From assembly GCF_016806735.1 (NCBI RefSeq), contig NZ_CP060530.1, positions 180,001-212,000 of the forward strand: a DNA stretch of 32,000 nt. The letters run 5' to 3'. The notes beneath the pieces are model-generated. The model did not search any database and was not told where the DNA came from. It saw nothing but the letters and a program-made list of their open reading frames with translations. This DNA comes from Candidatus Micrarchaeum sp. (GTDB taxonomy: Archaea; Micrarchaeota; Micrarchaeia; Micrarchaeales; Micrarchaeaceae). Position numbers and translations under genes: made by a program. Numbering within the stretch: the first letter of the stretch is position 1; each line of letters opens with the position of its first letter. Below, one piece after another: positions 16,827 through 23,518 of the stretch.

Positions 16827-18041
16827 TCATAGGCACATGTTGGCAAATACCTTCGCATCGTTTACCATATCGTCTATCCTGCAATATTCATTCGGCTGGT
16901 GTGCCATATCTTCGGCTTCAGTGCCCCATGCAACTGCAGGAAATCCCCTGTGCCTGAAGAATGCTGCGCATGTGCCTCCTCCTACGCCCATGGGCTTCGC
17001 ATCCACATTCATAACCTCTTTTATGCTCTTGAGCAGCCTTTTTACCACATCCGAATCCATGCTTGTAGGCTCTGCCGGATCTTCCCTGCTGAATGTTTCT
17101 ATCTCTATCTTAACTGCTTTGAAATCGTTAGAATTGCAGACGCTCTTTACGTCGTTAAGCACATCGTCCAGCTTGTACGTAGGAAGCACCCTGCAGTCGA
17201 AATAGAAAATGTCAGAACCCGGGACTATATTCACGCTGTCTACGTTTTTCTCCCTCTTCGTAGGTTCAAAGGTCGAATAAGGGGGCTGATAAATGTTATC
17301 CGTTGCGTTGTATTTCTGGTGCAGCATCTCGTCTATCTTTGTTATGAGCTTTGAGGCATTCCTGTTTGCGTTGACTCCGAGCGCCGGCGTGCTTGCATGC
17401 ACCTGTTTGCCATTCACTTTTATCTTGAGCCAAAGGGAGCCCTTCTCAGCTATCTCTACCATGCTTCCCCCTTCACTCAGGTAATCAGGGACTACAAACA
17501 TATCATTATCGCCGAATATTCCCTGCTCCTCCAGGAGCTTCTGTATCCCGTACTTGCTTCCAAGTTCCTCGTCTGCTACCAGTGCAACGCCCATATTGAA
17601 AGTCGTATCGCTTCCAAATTCCTTAATCGCCCTAAGTGCATATATCGACGCTATCAAGTCCTGCCCATTGTCATTGGTTCCCCTTCCGTAAATTTTGCCA
17701 TCTTTTATCTCGGCTTTGAAAGGGTCTGTAAGCCACAACGACCTGTCGCCAGGAGCAACGGTGTCCATGTGTGCCACAAACCACACGGTTCTTTCATTGT
17801 TTCCATGCCTGGCCACAAGATTTGGCCTCTTGGTGTTTGTCTCGTCGACATAATCATACCTTTTGACTTCAAATCCCCATTCCTTAAGCTTCCCTTCAAG
17901 GAAGTCTGCCCTTGCTCCTTCTCCTTTTCCATCGCTCATTGGGGAAATCGAAGGTATTGAAACCATTTCTGACATGGTGCTTACCATGTCGTCTTTGTAT
18001 TTTTCTATAATCGAAATAAGGCTGCTCTTATTCTCTTCCAT
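16827..18041 (-). CDS. M20-family metallopeptidase (ArgE/DapE/acetylornithine deacetylase-like)
   Basis: VWFVAHMDTVAPGD, ADEELGS, a dimerisation-lid region and C-terminal GGGTCAAFF..AHQPNEY are M20 blocks. I chose the ATG at 18041 (MEENKSS...) because a TATA-like aatttatac lies about 27 nt upstream. The track start is 18086. Confidence 0.85.
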   Translation of the reverse strand: MEENKSSLISIIEKYKDDMVSTMSEMVSIPSISPMSDGKGEGARADFLEGKLKEWGFEVKRYDYVDETNTKRPNLVARHGNNERTVWFVAHMDTVAPGDRSLWLTDPFKAEIKDGKIYGRGTNDNGQDLIASIYALRAIKEFGSDTTFNMGVALVADEELGSKYGIQKLLEEQGIFGDNDMFVVPDYLSEGGSMVEIAEKGSLWLKIKVNGKQVHASTPALGVNANRNASKLITKIDEMLHQKYNATDNIYQPPYSTFEPTKREKNVDSVNIVPGSDIFYFDCRVLPTYKLDDVLNDVKSVCNSNDFKAVKIEIETFSREDPAEPTSMDSDVVKRLLKSIKEVMNVDAKPMGVGGGTCAAFFRHRGFPAVAWGTEAEDMAHQPNEYCRIDDMVNDAKVFANMCL

Positions 18042-18101
18042 GCTATCACAGCCAATTTTAGCAGTCAAAGTATAAATTAATTCCATGCAGCTTTGGATAA
18101 G

Positions 18102-19514
18102 CTATACTGTGCAGCAGCTCTGCTTCGATATGTCTGCGAAAAAGGATTGGCATGCGAGCTTGAATCCCTCGCTCATGGTTGGGAATACGTGTACAGTGTC
18201 TATTACATCTTCTAATTTCAGGTGGAACTTTACTGCCATCACTGCTTCATGTATTAGATCTGCGGCTCCGTGCCCGAGCATGTGCACTCCAAGTATTTCA
18301 TGGGTTTTCGGGTTTATTACTATTTTTATGACACCCCTCGTGTCGGATATTATTTTTGACTTTGGTACAAATGCCATGGGTAGCGCGTTGCAGCCGCAAT
18401 TATTAAGGTCCTTTATCACCTGTTCTTCGGTTCTGCCAACCATTGCTGCTTCTGGCTCTGTAAACACTGCGCTGGGAACTTCGTTCAAATCTATCAGCTT
18501 TTTGCTTCCGAACATATTCTGCGTAGCTATATTTCCCTCTTTTGCTGCAAGCGTTTCAAGCATTGGATTTCCTGTAACATCTCCTGCTGCGTAAATGCCC
18601 TTAACGTTAGTCTGCAAGGTTCTGTCTATTTTTATGAAGCCTTTTTCATCCGTTTCTACTCCAACATTTTTCAAGCCCAGCTTTTCTGTATTCGGAGTCC
18701 TTCCTGTTGCCATGAGCAATTTGTCCGCAACTATGTTTTCTTCTTTTCCATTAACCAAGGCCTTCACTTCGGTTTTGCCGTTGCTATCTGCAACTGATTT
18801 TATTTCCACATTGGTTTTTATCTCTATTCCATCCTCCCTCAAGTATTTTTCCAAATGCTTTGAGACTGTCGGCTCCCAATTCGGTAGTATCGTCTGGCTC
18901 CTTTGCAATACCGTAACCTTGGTCCCGAACATGGAAAACATCTGTGCGAATTCCAATCCTATGGCTCTTCCACCAACGACTATCATGCTTTCCGGGAGCT
19001 CCTTAAGTGACAAGGCGCTTTCGTTGTCTAGGTATTTTACTTTGTCCATGCCCTGTACTTTAGGTACAAACGACCTTGCCCCTGTTGCTATCAATATCCT
19101 GTCTGCCTCTATTTCCTTTGAGCCTGCCTTTATGCGGTTAACTCCTTCTATTGAACCGAATTCGTTCAAATATGTGACTTTTTCAAGCGAATCAATAACA
19201 TCCGCGTATTTGGATTCGTGGAATTCTTTTATCAGATCGTCTTTTTCTTGGACTATTTCATTGTATTTCAAGATGCCAAGCTTGTAATCCAAACCTCCAA
19301 AGCGCTTGGTCCTAAGCTCTCTAACGAACCTTGCTACTGTTATCATGCGCTTGCTGGGCACGCATCCGACATTTACACACGTGCCTCCAAGCGTTGCTCC
19401 TTCTGTGGCATTCTTGCCTATCATTATTGTGCTCTTGCCCAGCTCGTTGGCTTTTATCGCTGCGGCGAAAGCTGCAGCTCCTTGCCCTATTATTGCATAG
19501 TCAAATTTTTCCAT
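18102..19514 (-). CDS. merA: mercuric reductase MerA (core enzyme, no N-terminal HMA/NmerA domain)
   Basis: 470 aa. FAD motif IIGQGAAAFAAA and redox-active disulfide GGTCVNVGCVPSK. The C-terminal vicinal cysteines ...ADISKQSCCTV are the pair that distinguishes MerA from lipoamide dehydrogenase and glutathione reductase. Confidence 0.8.
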   Translation of the reverse strand: MEKFDYAIIGQGAAAFAAAIKANELGKSTIMIGKNATEGATLGGTCVNVGCVPSKRMITVARFVRELRTKRFGGLDYKLGILKYNEIVQEKDDLIKEFHESKYADVIDSLEKVTYLNEFGSIEGVNRIKAGSKEIEADRILIATGARSFVPKVQGMDKVKYLDNESALSLKELPESMIVVGGRAIGLEFAQMFSMFGTKVTVLQRSQTILPNWEPTVSKHLEKYLREDGIEIKTNVEIKSVADSNGKTEVKALVNGKEENIVADKLLMATGRTPNTEKLGLKNVGVETDEKGFIKIDRTLQTNVKGIYAAGDVTGNPMLETLAAKEGNIATQNMFGSKKLIDLNEVPSAVFTEPEAAMVGRTEEQVIKDLNNCGCNALPMAFVPKSKIISDTRGVIKIVINPKTHEILGVHMLGHGAADLIHEAVMAVKFHLKLEDVIDTVHVFPTMSEGFKLACQSFFADISKQSCCTV

Positions 19515-19531
19515 TTATAAAACCTGTTTTA

Positions 19532-20104
19532 TCACAATGAGCCAGATAGGGAGTTTATTTTACTTTTAAGATTTTTCATCGTGGCTGCAAGGCTGCCGTC
19601 ATTCTCGTAAACTATCTTTCCATTTGATCCTATCAAATAATATACGTCAAGATAACCGTCTTTGTCGTATGCGAGAGATAAGTTATAACCTGAAATGGCA
19701 CTTCTGAAGTTGCTGTAGGAAGTCACATTTGGTGCATAATCATTTACGAATGTGTTTATTGGCGCGCCGCTATATCCCAAGTCTCTATAGAGCTCAATTT
19801 CGATTACATTTATGCCCTTATTTTTGAAGTAGCTGATGTTGTCATTTAGCATTTCGTTTCCCACTGCGCATCCGCTGCACCACGTTGCGACAAACCAGAG
19901 GAGCACGGGTTTGCCATTCAATGACGAAACATTTGCCACGGTGCCATTAGAAGCGTATATGAAAGAATAATCCGGTGCCTTCGCTCCGACCGCTGGCATG
20001 AACGACGGAGAAGCGCCTGCGCTGCGATTTATTCCAAAGAAATATACAAGGGCGATTGCAATTACTATTGCAGCAAATACATAGACAGTTCTCTTTTTTT
20101 GCAT
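19532..20104 (-). CDS. membrane-anchored thioredoxin-fold thiol:disulfide oxidoreductase (TlpA/ResA-like, WCSGC)
   Basis: N-terminal anchor VYVFAAIVIAIALVYFF, then KPVLLWFVATWCSGCAVGNE (CxxC) and a redoxin-like C-terminal part. The ATG at 20104 is preceded by GGTGA at -6, complementary to the 16S 3' end GAUCACCUCA seen in this window. An alternative ATG at 20122 would overlap the upstream gene by 7 nt. Confidence 0.7.
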   Translation of the reverse strand: MQKKRTVYVFAAIVIAIALVYFFGINRSAGASPSFMPAVGAKAPDYSFIYASNGTVANVSSLNGKPVLLWFVATWCSGCAVGNEMLNDNISYFKNKGINVIEIELYRDLGYSGAPINTFVNDYAPNVTSYSNFRSAISGYNLSLAYDKDGYLDVYYLIGSNGKIVYENDGSLAATMKNLKSKINSLSGSL

Positions 20105-20115
20105 TTTTTCACCAG

Positions 20116-20634
20116 CTAACATTCACACGAAGGTTTCTTTATCCTCTTCAACGAAACTCGGATCGAATAATAAAGCAGTAATGCTGCCATTACAATGAAA
20201 ACAGGGCTGAAATTCGAAAGTGCTCCCTGTATCGCGCCAGACGCAAGCGCAATGCCTCCGGATCCAAAAACTGCAACAAGGATAGAAGGTATAATCGGAG
20301 TGCAGCACATGGTTGAGGGCACGAGGCTTACTACGAAAGCGTATATTCCGCTCCTGTTGCCCTTTACATTGTTCCTAACTGTTTTTTGAGAATAGAGCCC
20401 AATAGCTATTGATAGTGCTGCCAGTATTGAAAGTGTAAACGAAGAAGCCAATATGTAATAAAAATAGTACTTAATCCCAAAAAGCGCAAGACCGAAACTG
20501 AAATACGAAAAAATTACATAGTAAAATATGAACATTGCAGCGAAGAATGTCAAAAACCTTACTTTAAGCGCCTTAAGGATTGCAGTAGTACCTTCTAAAG
20601 TTTCAAAGCTGCTGCTTTGTGCATAGCCGTTCAT
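20116..20634 (-). CDS. 4-TM membrane protein with intramembrane vicinal Cys pair and C-terminal CxC (candidate Hg(II)/thiol transporter)
   Basis: 172 aa with four hydrophobic helices. FVVSLVPSTMCCTPIIPSILVAVFG places CC inside helix 3. The C-terminus reads ...RIKKPSCEC. It is the first gene of the co-oriented merA transcription unit. I recognise no family by eye. Confidence 0.6.
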   Translation of the reverse strand: MNGYAQSSSFETLEGTTAILKALKVRFLTFFAAMFIFYYVIFSYFSFGLALFGIKYYFYYILASSFTLSILAALSIAIGLYSQKTVRNNVKGNRSGIYAFVVSLVPSTMCCTPIIPSILVAVFGSGGIALASGAIQGALSNFSPVFIVMAALLLYYSIRVSLKRIKKPSCEC

Positions 20635-20671
20635 GTAATCTACTGTTAAATAAGCGCAAACAAGGTATTTA

Positions 20672-20690
20672 AACTATAAACTTTATAGTT
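20672..20690. promoter_or_regulatory. perfect 9-1-9 palindrome AACTATAAA-C-TTTATAGTT in the divergent mer promoter (candidate operator and/or back-to-back TATA boxes)
   Basis: Read directly from the sequence. The two arms are exact reverse complements. The palindrome sits in the 61-76 nt gap between the minus-strand operon (start 20634) and the plus-strand HxlR-type regulator (start 20696 or 20711). Confidence 0.5.
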
Positions 20691-20710
20691 ATAAAGTGAG
20701 GTGTCCTATA

Positions 20711-21076
20711 ATGAACAATCCAAGCTCGTGTGCAGCACAGGATGCACTGTCATTAGTCTCGAAGAAATGGCTTCTTCTTGCTCTCAACAGCATAGCGGTT
20801 TATGGTACTTCTAGGTACAACCAGCTTCTGGAAAGGCTGTCACCGATAAGCCCTAAGGGCCTAGCTGACGTGCTGAAGCTAATGGAAGATAACGGGCTAA
20901 TCTATAAGAGCAGAAATAAGGATTCGGTGGGATACGCAATTACAAGCAAAGGCAGCGATTTGGATAAGGCTGCTCTGCCACTGCTGAAATGGTCAAGGCC
21001 GTTCTGCAAGGATGAGGAATGCAGCCTTGCCGTAGAAATTGACGGACAGCTATCAAAATCACACATTTCAAAGTAA
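20711..21076 (+). CDS. HxlR-type winged-helix transcriptional regulator with extra C-terminal Cys pair
   Basis: SSCAAQDALSLVSKKWLLLALNSIAVYGTSRYNQLLERLSPISPKGLADVLKLMEDNGLIYK matches the HxlR pattern (N-terminal Cys, GxKW, RFxEL..., GIS.K.L...L..LE..GL). The C-terminal FCKDEECS adds a CxxxxC. ATG at 20711 is preferred over GTG at 20696. Confidence 0.75.
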   Translation: MNNPSSCAAQDALSLVSKKWLLLALNSIAVYGTSRYNQLLERLSPISPKGLADVLKLMEDNGLIYKSRNKDSVGYAITSKGSDLDKAALPLLKWSRPFCKDEECSLAVEIDGQLSKSHISK

Positions 21077-21209
21077 AATCGCGGCAGAAAACTATGGACA
21101 ACTGCATAATTCTTCGCGTATTTGTCCAATAAATGCACTTTAAATAAATTTGTGCAAATGGCTATATATTTGGTCGGTCCTATATTATTTTTACATAAAA
21201 AGCGATTAT

Positions 21210-22463
21210 ATGGGATCCATTACAATATCCAAACCAAATAAACAAGAACGCGACAATTTGACGGATGTTCAAAAAAGGAACGCAGGCATAACCGCAAAAT
21301 ACGGGACACCTGAACAGCAGTCGGAGCTTTTAAACTCCGAAAGTATTAAAGACCTGCTTAAAATTAGCTATGAAGGCGAAGAAATCTACAAAATACTGGC
21401 CAAATCTAAATCAATTGATGTGAAATTCAAGCTTTTGGACTTTGTAACTTCAAAATCACCGGATTTGCTTGAAATGGTTGCACCGATACTTATAGAGGAG
21501 GCGAGACTTGCATATCGCAACGCTGAAATGCAAACAAGCAAAGATGTAATCGGAAAAGTTTGGGAATGCATAAAGATGGTTGACAACCCGGCAGATCCAA
21601 AAATACTTAATTCCGGCAAGAAAGAAAAGTTGGCTTATTCTTTATTTACATCCGAAGAAGGCTTTAGCCTTGTTTCCGATTTTCTTAGCTGGTTAAATGA
21701 CGCATCAGCGCTAAAGGCTTATAAAGAATATAGAGAGATCACCAAAGATAAATATTACAAAAACTCTCTTGACGCCATACCTACCAGAAAGAAAAATGTG
21801 GTAAAATCACGTCGTTACTTAGCGAACTATATTGCAACTTATGGTGGAGACAAGTTAAGGCTAGATCTTTTAAACACTATCGACCGTTTGAAGGCCTACG
21901 AACTGTTATATTTGGAAGACGAAACAAAAAGTAAGACAAGGTACAATTTCAACCCCATAGCATCAAAAAGCAATCACAACGAAAGCCTTTATTCAATTAT
22001 AGCTGCAAGCAGTGACGAAGAAGCAATCTCGAAATTTTTGGACGTGGTAGGCAAAATGGAAAACGGTGGCGAATTGCTCCTAGCAAAACCTCAGAACGAC
22101 TACTATTACAGCAAGTACCATTTTGACGGATTGGTTTCTCTCATAGCAGCAAAGATGGATTTCGAGTATAAATTTAATGCTGAAATTAACGGTGAGATTA
22201 GCAATAAAATATTGGCTCTTGCTGAAAAATACCCTCTAATACTCGGGTCGCGTTTCAGGTATGGTTCCGAAGAATATTACACAACCGTTGCCGAAATTAT
22301 AGCTGAGAAAGGCGGAAAGGAGATACAAGAGAAACTGCTAAAATTCATCGAAATCCCTGGTCTGGCAGAGCCTATAACAAAGGCAATAAACAAGTATAGC
22401 ACCGAAGAACTAAAGAAGGAAGTTCAAAAGTTCCTTCTTGGGCCCTTTAAACTTCGCGTCTAA
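21210..22463 (+). CDS. hypothetical protein (all-alpha, Lys/Glu-rich orphan in low-GC DNA)
   Basis: About 417 aa from the ATG at 21210 (MGSITISKPNK...). The track start at 21150 adds an implausible hydrophobic leader. I recognise no motif. A hand-counted 60-nt line (21421-21480) is 35% GC, versus 55% for 14881-14940 in alaS. Confidence 0.6.
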   Translation: MGSITISKPNKQERDNLTDVQKRNAGITAKYGTPEQQSELLNSESIKDLLKISYEGEEIYKILAKSKSIDVKFKLLDFVTSKSPDLLEMVAPILIEEARLAYRNAEMQTSKDVIGKVWECIKMVDNPADPKILNSGKKEKLAYSLFTSEEGFSLVSDFLSWLNDASALKAYKEYREITKDKYYKNSLDAIPTRKKNVVKSRRYLANYIATYGGDKLRLDLLNTIDRLKAYELLYLEDETKSKTRYNFNPIASKSNHNESLYSIIAASSDEEAISKFLDVVGKMENGGELLLAKPQNDYYYSKYHFDGLVSLIAAKMDFEYKFNAEINGEISNKILALAEKYPLILGSRFRYGSEEYYTTVAEIIAEKGGKEIQEKLLKFIEIPGLAEPITKAINKYSTEELKKEVQKFLLGPFKLRV

Positions 22464-22542: not shown

Positions 22543-22941
22543 CTAGCGTGCTAACTCCATTGCTAGTTTCCTTACCCTTTCGTATAAATTTTCGAGGTTT
22601 TTTTCCTTTTCTTCCTCGTCCATTGCTTCGAATTTAGGTATGTCCCAGTGCTCGGCGTTGTAGCTTTTGGGGAGAAGCACGCAATCGTCAGGGTCACACA
22701 CGGTTATTATCCTGGAAGCAGACTTGAGCATATCTTCAGTGAGCATTTTCGGCCTCTGGCCGCTCATGTCTATTCCGTATCTGCTCTTCAATAATGCTAT
22801 AGCCTCTGGACTGACTTCTTTTGCCGGCTCAGCCCCTGAAGCGCTTATCGCAAAATCCTTTTTGGAAACGCTGTTGAATATTGCCTCTGCAATCTGGCTT
22901 CGGTAAGAGTTTTCCTTGCATACAAAAAGAACCAATGCCAT
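22543..22941 (-). CDS. arsC: arsenate reductase / low-molecular-weight phosphotyrosine phosphatase family (thioredoxin-coupled ArsC type)
   Basis: 132 aa. The P-loop VLFVCKENSYRSQIAEA (CX5R-S) plus the downstream Cys pair ITVCDPDDCVL are the three-Cys relay layout of Gram-positive-type ArsC. Confidence 0.75.
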   Translation of the reverse strand: MALVLFVCKENSYRSQIAEAIFNSVSKKDFAISASGAEPAKEVSPEAIALLKSRYGIDMSGQRPKMLTEDMLKSASRIITVCDPDDCVLLPKSYNAEHWDIPKFEAMDEEEKEKNLENLYERVRKLAMELAR

Positions 22942-22993: not shown

Positions 22994-23518
22994 TTAGACT
23001 CTTGACTCCTTGAGCTCTTTCATGGCTTCCTCCCTGCTCTCAAACTTCTCGAACTTCATGAATTTCCCTTTCTCAAGCTCCTTGTAATGCTCGAAGAAAT
23101 GCTTTATCTTGTTCTTCATGAATTCCGGTATGTCCTGGGCATCCTTGTATGAAGAGAAAGCCGGGTCTACTTTTTCCACCGGTACTGCTATGACCTTGTT
23201 GTCAGAGCCCTCTTCGTCGCTCATTACCGCGATCCCTATGGGCCTTACCTTTATCACCATGCCGCTGGATATCGGCACCTGCGACATTACGAGCACGTCA
23301 AGTGGATCTCCGTCCTTTCCCTTTGTTCCAAGCGCAAATCCGTAGTTCGTAGGGTATGTCATAGAAGTGAAAAGGAACCTGTCAACTACTACTGCTTCGA
23401 GGTCCTCCTTGTACTCGTACTTTATGCCGCTGCCCTGGGGTATCTCTATGAACGCGTAAAACGTCTCTGGAAAATTGTCTGTCTGCTTTGAGAAGTTCAT
23501 TCTATCACTTGCGTGCAT
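22994..23518 (-). CDS. ppa: inorganic pyrophosphatase (family I)
   Basis: [14 protein letters not shown]...[19 protein letters not shown]...[10 protein letters not shown]...[19 protein letters not shown] are the canonical family I PPase blocks. An alternative ATG lies at 23500. Confidence 0.9.

Follow-up and report, generated by a model that had tools for sequence, protein, structure and literature searches.

A candidate mercury detoxification locus in Candidatus Micrarchaeum harzensis A_DKE with a cysteine membrane protein probably related to MerT and MerF and a thioredoxin-fold partner

Do the two cysteine-containing proteins encoded directly upstream of merA in Candidatus Micrarchaeum harzensis A_DKE, a cultivated DPANN archaeon, bring Hg(II) to the mercuric reductase, or does their position have another meaning? 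The locus (Micr_00220-00223) lies in the 32,000 nucleotide stretch of contig NZ_CP060530.1 that was analysed here (positions 180,001 to 212,000, hereafter called the window). It consists of merA, a gene encoding a membrane-anchored, outward-facing thioredoxin (Trx)-fold protein with a CxxC motif, a gene encoding a membrane protein with four predicted transmembrane (TM) helices, and a divergent gene encoding an HxlR/DUF24-family (YodB-like) regulator. An earlier description made from the letters of the sequence (hereafter the sequence-only reading) had suggested that these genes could be an archaeal module for the capture, relay and sensing of Hg(II). Archaeal mer operons often contain merA alone, and MerT/MerP-type transport was found to be absent except for one Ferroplasma merP homologue in a survey from 2012 (PMC3466566). 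MerA has been catalogued in Micrarchaeota and Parvarchaeota, without examination of accessory genes (PMC8261052). The evidence presented below leans, if not heavily, towards a mercury detoxification locus in which Hg(II) is captured, imported and passed on for reduction with the help of the accessory genes, under the control of a thiol-sensing repressor.

Mercuric reductase and layout of the locus

The four open reading frames (ORFs) that the sequence-only reading had listed, their spacing, their cysteine motifs and the palindrome between the divergent genes were all found in the sequence. The three mer-side proteins are identical to the Candidatus Micrarchaeum sp. records QRF73704-6. In the published annotation of A_DKE, Micr_00220 is a mercuric reductase, Micr_00221 Bcp/CcmG-like, Micr_00222 an 'Uncharacterized membrane protein' of arCOG08553 and Micr_00223 an HxlR protein.

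The merA gene (Micr_00220; 18102..19514, minus strand) encodes 470 amino acids, which score 517.6 bits against the NCBIfam MerA equivalog TIGR02053 (cutoff 454.45). All other flavoprotein disulfide reductase models remained below their own cutoffs, the next family being lipoamide dehydrogenase. Among solved structures, the mercuric reductase of Metallosphaera sedula is the best match (4YWO, E = 4.5e-106), with an alignment that extends through the C-terminal SCC. The residues which Boyd and Barkay used as signatures of MerA are CxxxxC, a C-terminal vicinal Cys pair, Tyr264 and Tyr or Phe605, Phe being the archaeal form (PMC3466566). In the window protein they correspond to the redox motif GGTCVNVGCVPSK (C46/C51), the SCC (C467/C468), Y103 and F444, the last in its archaeal form. 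The protein has no HMA motif and no N-terminal HMA (NmerA) domain. By its sequence it is a genuine archaeal-type core mercuric reductase, as the sequence-only reading had held. A TTTTATAA element is present directly upstream of the merA ATG.

The gene for the 4-TM protein (Micr_00222; 20116..20634, minus strand, 172 amino acids) and that for the Trx-fold protein (Micr_00221; 19532..20104, minus strand) precede merA in this order. The longest ORF of the Trx-fold gene starts at 20122 and overlaps the 4-TM ORF by 7 nt. The ATG at 20104 (190 amino acids), which would leave a gap of 11 nt, was preferred as the start because the homologues and the A_DKE annotation agree on it. The gap between the Trx-fold gene and merA is 17 nt. 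From this spacing the three genes might be co-transcribed.

The 4-TM membrane protein and its relation to MerT and MerF

Hydropathy and charge distribution predict four TM helices with both termini inside for the arCOG08553 protein. The loop at residues 84-94 is rich in Lys and Arg and is predicted to be cytoplasmic. The vicinal pair C110/C111 lies in the middle of TM3, in the motif STMCCTPIIP, and the basic C-terminal tail, which carries C170-E-C172, is predicted to be cytoplasmic because it is also K/R-rich. These predictions support the topology and cysteine layout of the sequence-only reading, as do those for the Trx-fold partner described below.

Neither Pfam nor NCBIfam contained a match to the 4-TM protein, even at E ≤ 10. 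With the exception of one weak MerT match among 48 family members, neither the protein nor its relatives matched the MerT, MerF, MerC, MerE or DsbD families. A word-indexed search returned 12 close relatives, all from DPANN-type archaea, and an exhaustive profile search showed the family to be rare (75 clusters among 1.84 billion representatives, mostly full-length matches). A profile-seeded search then gave 207 clusters at 90 % identity, including Halobacteriales and Nanohaloarchaea, all of them 'hypothetical' and without a Pfam domain. A tblastn search of plasmids with the window protein as query gave only matches with E = 3, which could be interpreted only once a bacterial member served as query. 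Some names that family members received by automated annotation seem to be spurious, namely 'energy-coupling factor transporter transmembrane protein EcfT' in JGI and 'Yip1 domain-containing protein' and 'ABC transporter permease' in UniRef. The EcfT, Yip1 and ABC permease families were absent from the Pfam and NCBIfam scans of the 4-TM proteins. A nearly identical copy bears the label Methanothrix sp., and several labels of metagenome-assembled genomes (Marsarchaeota, Parvarchaeum) are mutually inconsistent.

Most members of an alignment of 48 sequences are 17-31 % identical to the window protein. Only the initiator Met, C110, C111 and C170 are invariant, with P116, G133 and Y38 nearly so. 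In the close family the whole motif PSTMCCTP(V/I)IPS is invariant. A second tail cysteine is present in 41 of the 48 members, as CC (12), CxC (10), Cx5C (11) or in other arrangements (8). The Cx5C form has the C76-x5-C82 spacing of the MerT sequences aligned here. An AlphaFold model based on 11 sequences was unusable (predicted local distance difference test, pLDDT, 45.6). A model by AlphaFold2 (AF2) on 100 sequences reached a pLDDT of 68.8 and showed four long helices, with TM3 kinked or broken just after the CC pair.

For profile-profile comparison by hhalign, reference alignments of MerT and MerF were built from annotated plasmid mer operons. A 4-TM profile of 11 sequences gave 17 % with MerT (score 26.3, 58 columns, E = 0.0015) and 1.6 % with MerF (score 18.0, 30 columns, E = 0.032). 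These values were set aside as noise because reversed controls also reach E values near 1e-3. The profile of 48 sequences matched MerT with 95.4 % (score 53.4, 77 columns, E = 1.7e-8) and MerF with 86 % (score 37.9, 72 columns), and an independent profile of 100 sequences matched MerT with 66.6 % (score 35.1, 71 columns) and MerF with 91.5 % (score 43.6, 69 columns). The positive control, MerF against MerT, gave 93 % (score 43.8, 37 columns). Reversed sequences gave 9-22 % (scores 23.5-25.6), and column-shuffled controls scored at most 16.6. When Cys was changed to Ala in the comparisons with the 48-sequence profile, the match to MerT survived (60 %, score 32.7, 66 columns), whereas that to MerF fell to noise (28 %, score 26.6, 61 columns).

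Residues 94-172 of the 4-TM protein align with residues 10-84 of MerT, which places the CC pair on C24/C25, C170 on C76 and the tail on C82. No comparable similarity was found between the 4-TM family and the DsbD_TM protein of a related operon, MerH of Mycobacterium marinum or MerE (0.2 % each), or a MerC-like protein (1.4 %). TM3, TM4 and the tail are thus probably a remote homologue of the two-helix core of MerT and MerF, placed after two family-specific helices. According to the sequence-only reading, the proteins upstream of merA resembled neither MerT, MerP, MerC, MerF or MerE nor the Sulfolobus MerH and MerI. This holds for the curated models, none of which identified them, and for the TRASH domain, which is absent, but not for the C-terminal half of the 4-TM protein if it shares the ancestry proposed here.

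Three further observations concern related membrane proteins. In loci of Acidimicrobiia and Dormibacterota, small MerF-like ORFs with two TM helices (LPVLCCGGP...RRRRAACC) occur immediately upstream of the 4-TM gene (L036:4397-4792, L045:362-691, L065:6152-6454 and about 30 more bacterial loci). They match MerF with 94.9 % in hhalign. The 325 amino acid protein P0086 is a natural fusion of a MerF-like unit with a domain of the 4-TM family. There is also a paralogous full-length family with CxxC (AACSSCVAA) instead of the vicinal CC in TM3 and with CxxC or CxC in the tail (L084:4936-5433, L085:4447-5019 and L082:4421-4813). The paralogues of L084 and L085 match the CC family with 95-97 % over about 155 columns in hhalign, and the shorter L082 member was assigned by its motif only. 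Their genes are placed between merA and the redoxin gene, in operons that also carry the CC family.

The thioredoxin-fold partner

The protein encoded by Micr_00221 scores just above the gathering scores of Pfam Redoxin (36.5 bits) and AhpC-TSA (35.5 bits). It is far under the cutoffs of ResA (48.6 versus 170), DsbE (26.9 versus 359), the dsbE subfamily (22.9 versus 123) and TlpA (18.7 versus 230). Its closest relative in the PDB is ResA (33 bits). The Trx domain is predicted to be outside the membrane, with the N-terminus inside, because a KKKR stretch is combined with a single N-terminal TM helix. The WCSGC pair provides its only cysteines. The motif W-x3-TWCxxC-x2-G is invariant in 13 partners from Micrarchaeota, other archaea, Acidiphilium and Acidimicrobiia, which form one conserved group.

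Thiol-disulfide oxidoreductases of the Trx fold normally retain a cis-Pro. In the HMMER alignment to ResA, cis-Pro141 of the sequence LPTTFLI is matched by the Asp of LDVYYLI, and this Asp is invariant in all 13 partners. The loss of the cis-Pro argues against a routine ResA-like reductase and is compatible with metal binding; that the Asp itself might be a metal ligand is speculation. Neither cytochrome c maturation genes nor ccdA occur beside the Trx-fold gene in the window or in the Micrarchaeota loci. The protein matched no HMA family and so does not have the MerP fold with GMxCxxC; its fold is Trx-like. A Sco1/SenC identity, suggested by database names, was rejected since there was no SCO1 match. 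A peroxiredoxin identity was likewise rejected, the AhpC-TSA score being marginal and the motif being WCxxC instead of the PxxxTxxC of peroxiredoxins.

The Trx partner is fused to DUF3105 (337-441 amino acids) in haloarchaeal plasmids and in two further loci (L028:3617-4942, L082:4810-5994 and L085:4988-6001), and the fusion in L082 has additional faint zinc-finger matches. These fusions point to a mercury-related role for DUF3105.

Linkage of the pair to merA

Within Micrarchaeota the unit of divergent HxlR, 4-TM, Trx and MerA genes is kept down to 56 % identity of the 4-TM protein. It is also intact in a genome in which ribosomal protein genes take the place of the M20 peptidase gene in the downstream flank. 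Other acid-mine archaea carry 4-TM-Trx-ArsR-MerA operons with Trx homologues of 53 % identity. The order ArsR...MerA...Redoxin(+/-DUF3105)-4-TM was seen in four additional loci, of which at least one is clearly archaeal, and the MerA of each has CxNVGC, Phe605 and a C-terminal CC. On haloarchaeal plasmids, merB-merA is divergent from ArsR-hyp-'DUF3105'-4-TM, and this 'DUF3105' partner matches the Trx set, with a Redoxin domain within it in related loci. Altogether the archaeal linkage is based on 11 locus look-ups.

Plasmid pACMV1 of Acidiphilium multivorum carries helix-turn-helix (HTH) regulator-hyp-merA-redoxin-4-TM, and its HTH protein matches the MerR-type regulators of the locus survey. 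Between the HTH gene and merA this plasmid encodes a Cys-rich hypothetical protein of 170 amino acids (L029:2127-2639). It shows no similarity to the 4-TM proteins (0.1 % in hhalign) and may represent a further, so far uncharacterised membrane component of mer systems.

A scan of bacterial genomes gave 50 loci, in Acidimicrobiales, other Actinomycetota, Dormibacterota, Ferrimicrobium and the cultured Aciditerrimonas ferrireducens. The Trx gene follows the 4-TM gene nearly wherever the sequence continues, usually with a second Trx-like gene after it, and a gene for a MerF-like 2-TM protein often precedes the 4-TM gene. A bona fide MerA is encoded in 20 of the 50 loci and in 15 of the 27 for which each flank extends over 5 kb or more, and several loci are tight MerR-MerA-(MerF-like)-4-TM-Trx-Trx arrays. 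The linkage is far beyond chance, because MerA is present in only about 7.8 % of genomes (PMC8261052).

The regulators beside the cassette vary by lineage, being of the HxlR, ArsR or MerR type. The pair was thus repeatedly linked to merA across distant lineages, the opposite of what the sequence-only reading had named as grounds for giving up its proposal. The module is, on the other hand, not specific to archaea, as that reading had assumed. Acidophilic Actinomycetota and Dormibacterota have it at least as commonly, and it is found on an Acidiphilium plasmid.

Regulator, operator and transcript levels

The gene for the regulator (Micr_00223) occupies 20711..21076 on the plus strand. Its ORF in the window extends from 20696, and the ATG at 20711 (121 amino acids) was taken as the true start because the homologues all begin at Met6 of this ORF, in agreement with the A_DKE annotation. 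The protein belongs to Pfam HxlR (38 bits, gathering score 20.8), which was its only significant family match, with no MerR or HTH_5/ArsR domain. C7, C99 and C104 are invariant in four lineages, the latter two within the C-terminal motif FCKDEEC.

The best PDB match is YodB (5HS7, E = 4.3e-7), and EF0647 and HxlR were also found. C99 aligns with the Cys of the YodB motif 'qfCepg', Cys101 of YodB, in which the sensing cysteines are C6, C101 and C108. C7 is located three residues before the aligned block, at about the position of the N-terminal sensing Cys of YodB. The HxlR assignment of the sequence-only reading is supported, and the regulator has conserved cysteines and a conserved operator. 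The N-terminal Cys that it had picked out, C3 of MRCPI, lies upstream of the conserved protein, however, and the conserved residue is C12 of the ORF, that is, C7.

The divergent promoter region (20635..20710) contains the palindrome AACTATAAA-C-TTTATAGTT at 20672-20690, between TATA-like boxes. With three mismatches allowed it is unique in the window, and none would be expected by chance. The operator core ACTTTATAACTATAAAGTTTATAGTTTAAATA includes the TATA-like boxes towards both genes, and is conserved, with no more than a single substitution in any of four lineages whose intergenic flanks diverge.

In the published co-culture transcriptome, obtained without added mercury, the genes for MerA, the Trx-fold protein and the 4-TM protein have 0.28, 0.051 and 0.026 transcripts per million (TPM), respectively, the HxlR-type regulator has 0.52 TPM, and housekeeping genes of A_DKE have about 0.3-1.4 TPM (Krause et al. 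2022, Supplementary Data S5). That the 4-TM and Trx-fold genes are near silent without Hg, with the regulator expressed, fits repression. The value for MerA suggests that merA is not expressed from the upstream promoter alone, and the uneven levels suggest an internal merA promoter or differing mRNA stability.

Proposed pathway and alternative explanations

From the gene identities, the invariant cysteines, the topology given by hydropathy and charge, the similarity to MerT and MerF above controls, the linkage to merA and the conserved operator, we infer the following transfer steps and direction of transport, together with the role of the Asp and the sensing of Hg(II). The Trx-fold protein, tethered outside the membrane under the S-layer, would capture Hg(II) on its CxxC in place of MerP, possibly assisted by the invariant Asp that replaces the cis-Pro. 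Hg(II) would pass to the vicinal Cys110/Cys111 at the kink of TM3 and, by thiol ligand exchange through the MerT/MerF-type core, to the cytoplasmic C170-x-C172 tail. From the tail it would be handed to Cys467/Cys468 of the MerA that lacks NmerA, then to the C46/C51-FAD (flavin adenine dinucleotide) site for reduction to volatile Hg(0). A YodB-like HxlR dimer on the palindrome, which overlaps both TATA-like boxes, would repress the operon until Hg(II) or another thiol-reactive agent, by engaging C7 with C99' and C104' between the subunits, releases it.

Several results count against this pathway. None of the curated MerT, MerF and MerC models recognised the 4-TM protein, and the one weak match to MerT (1 of 48 members) had E = 0.0047. 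The hhalign probabilities vary between profiles (67-95 %), the two deep profiles disagree on whether MerT or MerF is the better match, and the match to MerF needs the cysteines. The AF2 model is only moderate, and a Foldseek search of the PDB with it found nothing (best E = 3.2). Seven of the 48 members have one tail Cys only.

No merA is present within 7 kb in 12 of the 27 well-flanked bacterial loci. Loci without merA include the short contig L024, and some are just ArsR-4-TM-Trx-Trx. In many other loci the pair is accompanied by a gene for a MerF-like, MerC-like or DsbD_TM protein, which means that it need not be the importer. The regulator may not be specific for Hg, since YodB-type regulators are general electrophile and disulfide sensors. 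The transcript level of MerA is 5-10 times as high as the levels of the 4-TM and Trx-fold genes and argues against a single simple transcript, so that of the co-transcription put forward in the sequence-only reading the tight spacing stands.

An outside CxxC with in-membrane and cytoplasmic Cys pairs is as fit for the exchange of disulfides as for that of Hg ligands. The 4-TM protein could instead send reducing equivalents outward, in the manner of CcdA/DsbD, and keep the Trx-fold protein reduced; the latter would then repair or protect oxidised or mercurated surface thiols, with MerA handling Hg(II) that enters otherwise. We regard such a reductant relay as unlikely, although the nearest named relatives of the Trx partner are the reductases ResA, DsbE and TlpA, dedicated MerF-like or MerC-like transporters often coexist with the pair, and some cassette loci have ArsR and no nearby merA. 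Against it, the 4-TM family has no similarity to DsbD_TM or CcdA (no match to the Pfam model DsbD_TM, PF02683, at E ≤ 1 in any of the 48 members, hhalign 0.2 %), and its strongest remote match is to MerT and MerF. The operon L085 already has a DsbD_TM gene beside its 4-TM gene, and the Trx partner lacks the oxidoreductase cis-Pro. The 4-TM protein also has a vicinal CC pair. Such pairs are typical of Hg-handling proteins (MerT, MerF and the C-terminus of MerA) and, to our knowledge, not of known transmembrane disulfide relays. A generic relay of the CcdA/DsbD and ResA type, which the sequence-only reading had recognised as the competing identity, was accordingly not found, the Trx protein being also below the cutoffs of ResA, DsbE and TlpA.

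Even less probable is a general thiol or electrophile stress operon. Its YodB-like regulator would respond to disulfide or electrophile stress, and the two Cys proteins and the MerA-like flavoenzyme would have a role in redox homeostasis that is not specific to mercury, acting for example on a low-molecular-weight disulfide or another soft metal. The HxlR/YodB regulators are known as electrophile and oxidant sensors, with YodB as the best PDB match here, and this lineage has no MerR- or ArsR-type regulator; an ArsC-like LMWPc gene is a conserved neighbour, and mercury is never mentioned in the A_DKE paper. MerA, however, scores above the equivalog cutoff, and its C-terminal CC, Tyr264 and Phe605 are signatures that separate mercuric from other disulfide reductases, and in other lineages the mercury-specific merB, MerR and MerF-like genes are found beside the cassette. 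Inherited synteny in one clade, with no functional meaning of the adjacency, is effectively excluded. The flanks in Micrarchaeota (LMWPc, pyrophosphatase, M20 peptidase and alaS) are indeed largely syntenic too, but the pair recurs beside merA in unrelated phyla and on plasmids, where gene orders, regulators and flanks differ.

Comparison with known systems

The proposed Hg(II) pathway shares its logic with MerT-MerP-MerA of Tn501/Tn21: a receptor with a Cys pair outside, a vicinal CC followed by Pro in a TM helix, a second cytoplasmic Cys pair, and MerA. MerT has three TM helices, whereas the window protein has four, two of which are extra and N-terminal. The pair is followed by Pro as CCxP in the window family and as CCxxP in MerT and MerF, and the second Cys pair is C-terminal in the window protein and in a loop in MerT. 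The receptor is a TM-anchored Trx-fold protein here and the soluble HMA-fold MerP in the Tn501/Tn21 operons, which have a MerR-type regulator, whereas the window has an HxlR-type regulator and a MerA without NmerA. MerF, a two-helix hairpin in which the first helix carries the CC and the C-terminal Cys pair is cytoplasmic, has the layout of TM3-TM4 and tail of the window protein. It has half the helices, however, its similarity drops to noise with the cysteines masked, and bacterial loci contain true MerF-like genes side by side with the 4-TM family.

The CcdA/DsbD_TM and ResA/TlpA/CcmG systems likewise pair a small Cys membrane protein with a TM-anchored extracytoplasmic Trx-fold protein carrying WCxxC. 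The CcdA/DsbD relay has six TM helices and one essential Cys in each of two helices, whereas the 4-TM protein has a vicinal CC in one helix. The ResA/TlpA/CcmG relay belongs to a cytochrome c maturation context, and differs in this from the window pair, which is linked to merA and has a partner without the cis-Pro.

The regulator resembles YodB, HypR and QorR in its HxlR fold, with one Cys before helix 1 and two near the C-terminus, and in being a divergently transcribed, here putative, autoregulator with a palindromic operator. It differs in controlling, by its position, a merA operon and in its C-terminal Cx4C spacing, which is Cx6C in YodB.

The Sulfolobus merR(ArsR)-merH(TRASH)-merA-merI set and the 'merA-only' archaeal operons have, as here, a MerA of the Phe605 type without NmerA under a repressor. 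The Sulfolobus set includes a TRASH protein and ArsR, neither of which is found at the window locus (no TRASH match in seven proteins scanned around merA), and the window locus has candidate transport components. MerH of M. marinum, the Hg2+ transporter of pMM23, is a Cys membrane protein of similar size (171 amino acids) from an ArsR-type actinobacterial mer operon. It carries its CC in the first helix and the 4-TM protein in TM3, and identity of the two was rejected as there was no BLASTP alignment and hhalign gave 0.2-0.3 %.

The occurrence of MerA in Micrarchaeota is already known, and the 4-TM family is listed in arCOG only as 'uncharacterized'. In the literature searched, no description was found of this family as part of the Mer superfamily, of a Trx-like or redoxin mer partner, or of an HxlR-type regulator for mer, and nothing relevant on mercury was found in the A_DKE papers. 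If the detoxification reading, which is somewhat favoured here, is right, this mer operon would be distinguished by its HxlR-type regulator, by a receptor with a Trx fold and by a transporter from a new branch of the Mer superfamily, without being categorically new.

The full combination is more tentative, and we give it rather less than an even chance. In it, the pair would be a widely transferred two-component Hg(II) acquisition system, comprising a new branch of MerT/MerF and a Trx oxidoreductase turned into a Cys2-Asp metal site, that supplies the missing archaeal transport step, and in this lineage HxlR would be the third independently recruited class of Hg-responsive regulator, after MerR and ArsR. 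If the detoxification reading is right, the locus would provide the first candidate Hg(II) uptake components of archaeal mer systems, a new branch of the transporter superfamily with a sister family in which CxxC replaces CC, a thioredoxin fold repurposed as a metal receptor and a new class of regulator for mer. Lineages of acid mines and acid springs are where the cassette is concentrated (Micrarchaeota, Acidimicrobiia, Dormibacterota and Acidiphilium), and inventories of mercury-cycling genes for such sites therefore currently miss it. Since A_DKE is available in a stable co-culture with published transcriptomes, induction by Hg(II) is directly testable.

Neighbouring genes

Downstream of merA, an M20 peptidase ORF of 419 amino acids (16827-18086, minus strand) begins 15 nt after MerA by ORF coordinates. 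The NCBIfam match starts at residue 21 and the homologues have 403-404 amino acids. The longest ORF probably starts too early, and the likely start is Met16 (MEENKSS), which would widen the gap after merA to about 60 nt from 15 nt. In L001, a more distant relative, the M20 peptidase gene is unlinked.

On the other side, an ORF of 437 amino acids (21150-22463, plus strand) lies between the HxlR and LMWPc genes. The region has a low G+C fraction of 0.371, compared with about 0.43-0.48 in most of the window, and the ORF had no family match in Pfam, NCBIfam or PHROGs. It looks like a lineage-specific insertion because the HxlR and LMWPc genes abut or overlap in L001, L005 and L008.

The ORF at 22543-22941 (minus strand) encodes an ArsC-like low-molecular-weight phosphatase (LMWPc), which scores 64 bits, below the cutoff, with the arsC_pI258 family. 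At 22994-23518 (minus strand) there is an ORF in the place where related loci carry a gene for inorganic pyrophosphatase (PF00719). In related loci the LMWPc and pyrophosphatase genes are conserved beside the HxlR regulator, with the LMWPc gene convergent with the HxlR gene, and they may represent a small metal or metalloid stress neighbourhood or plain synteny.

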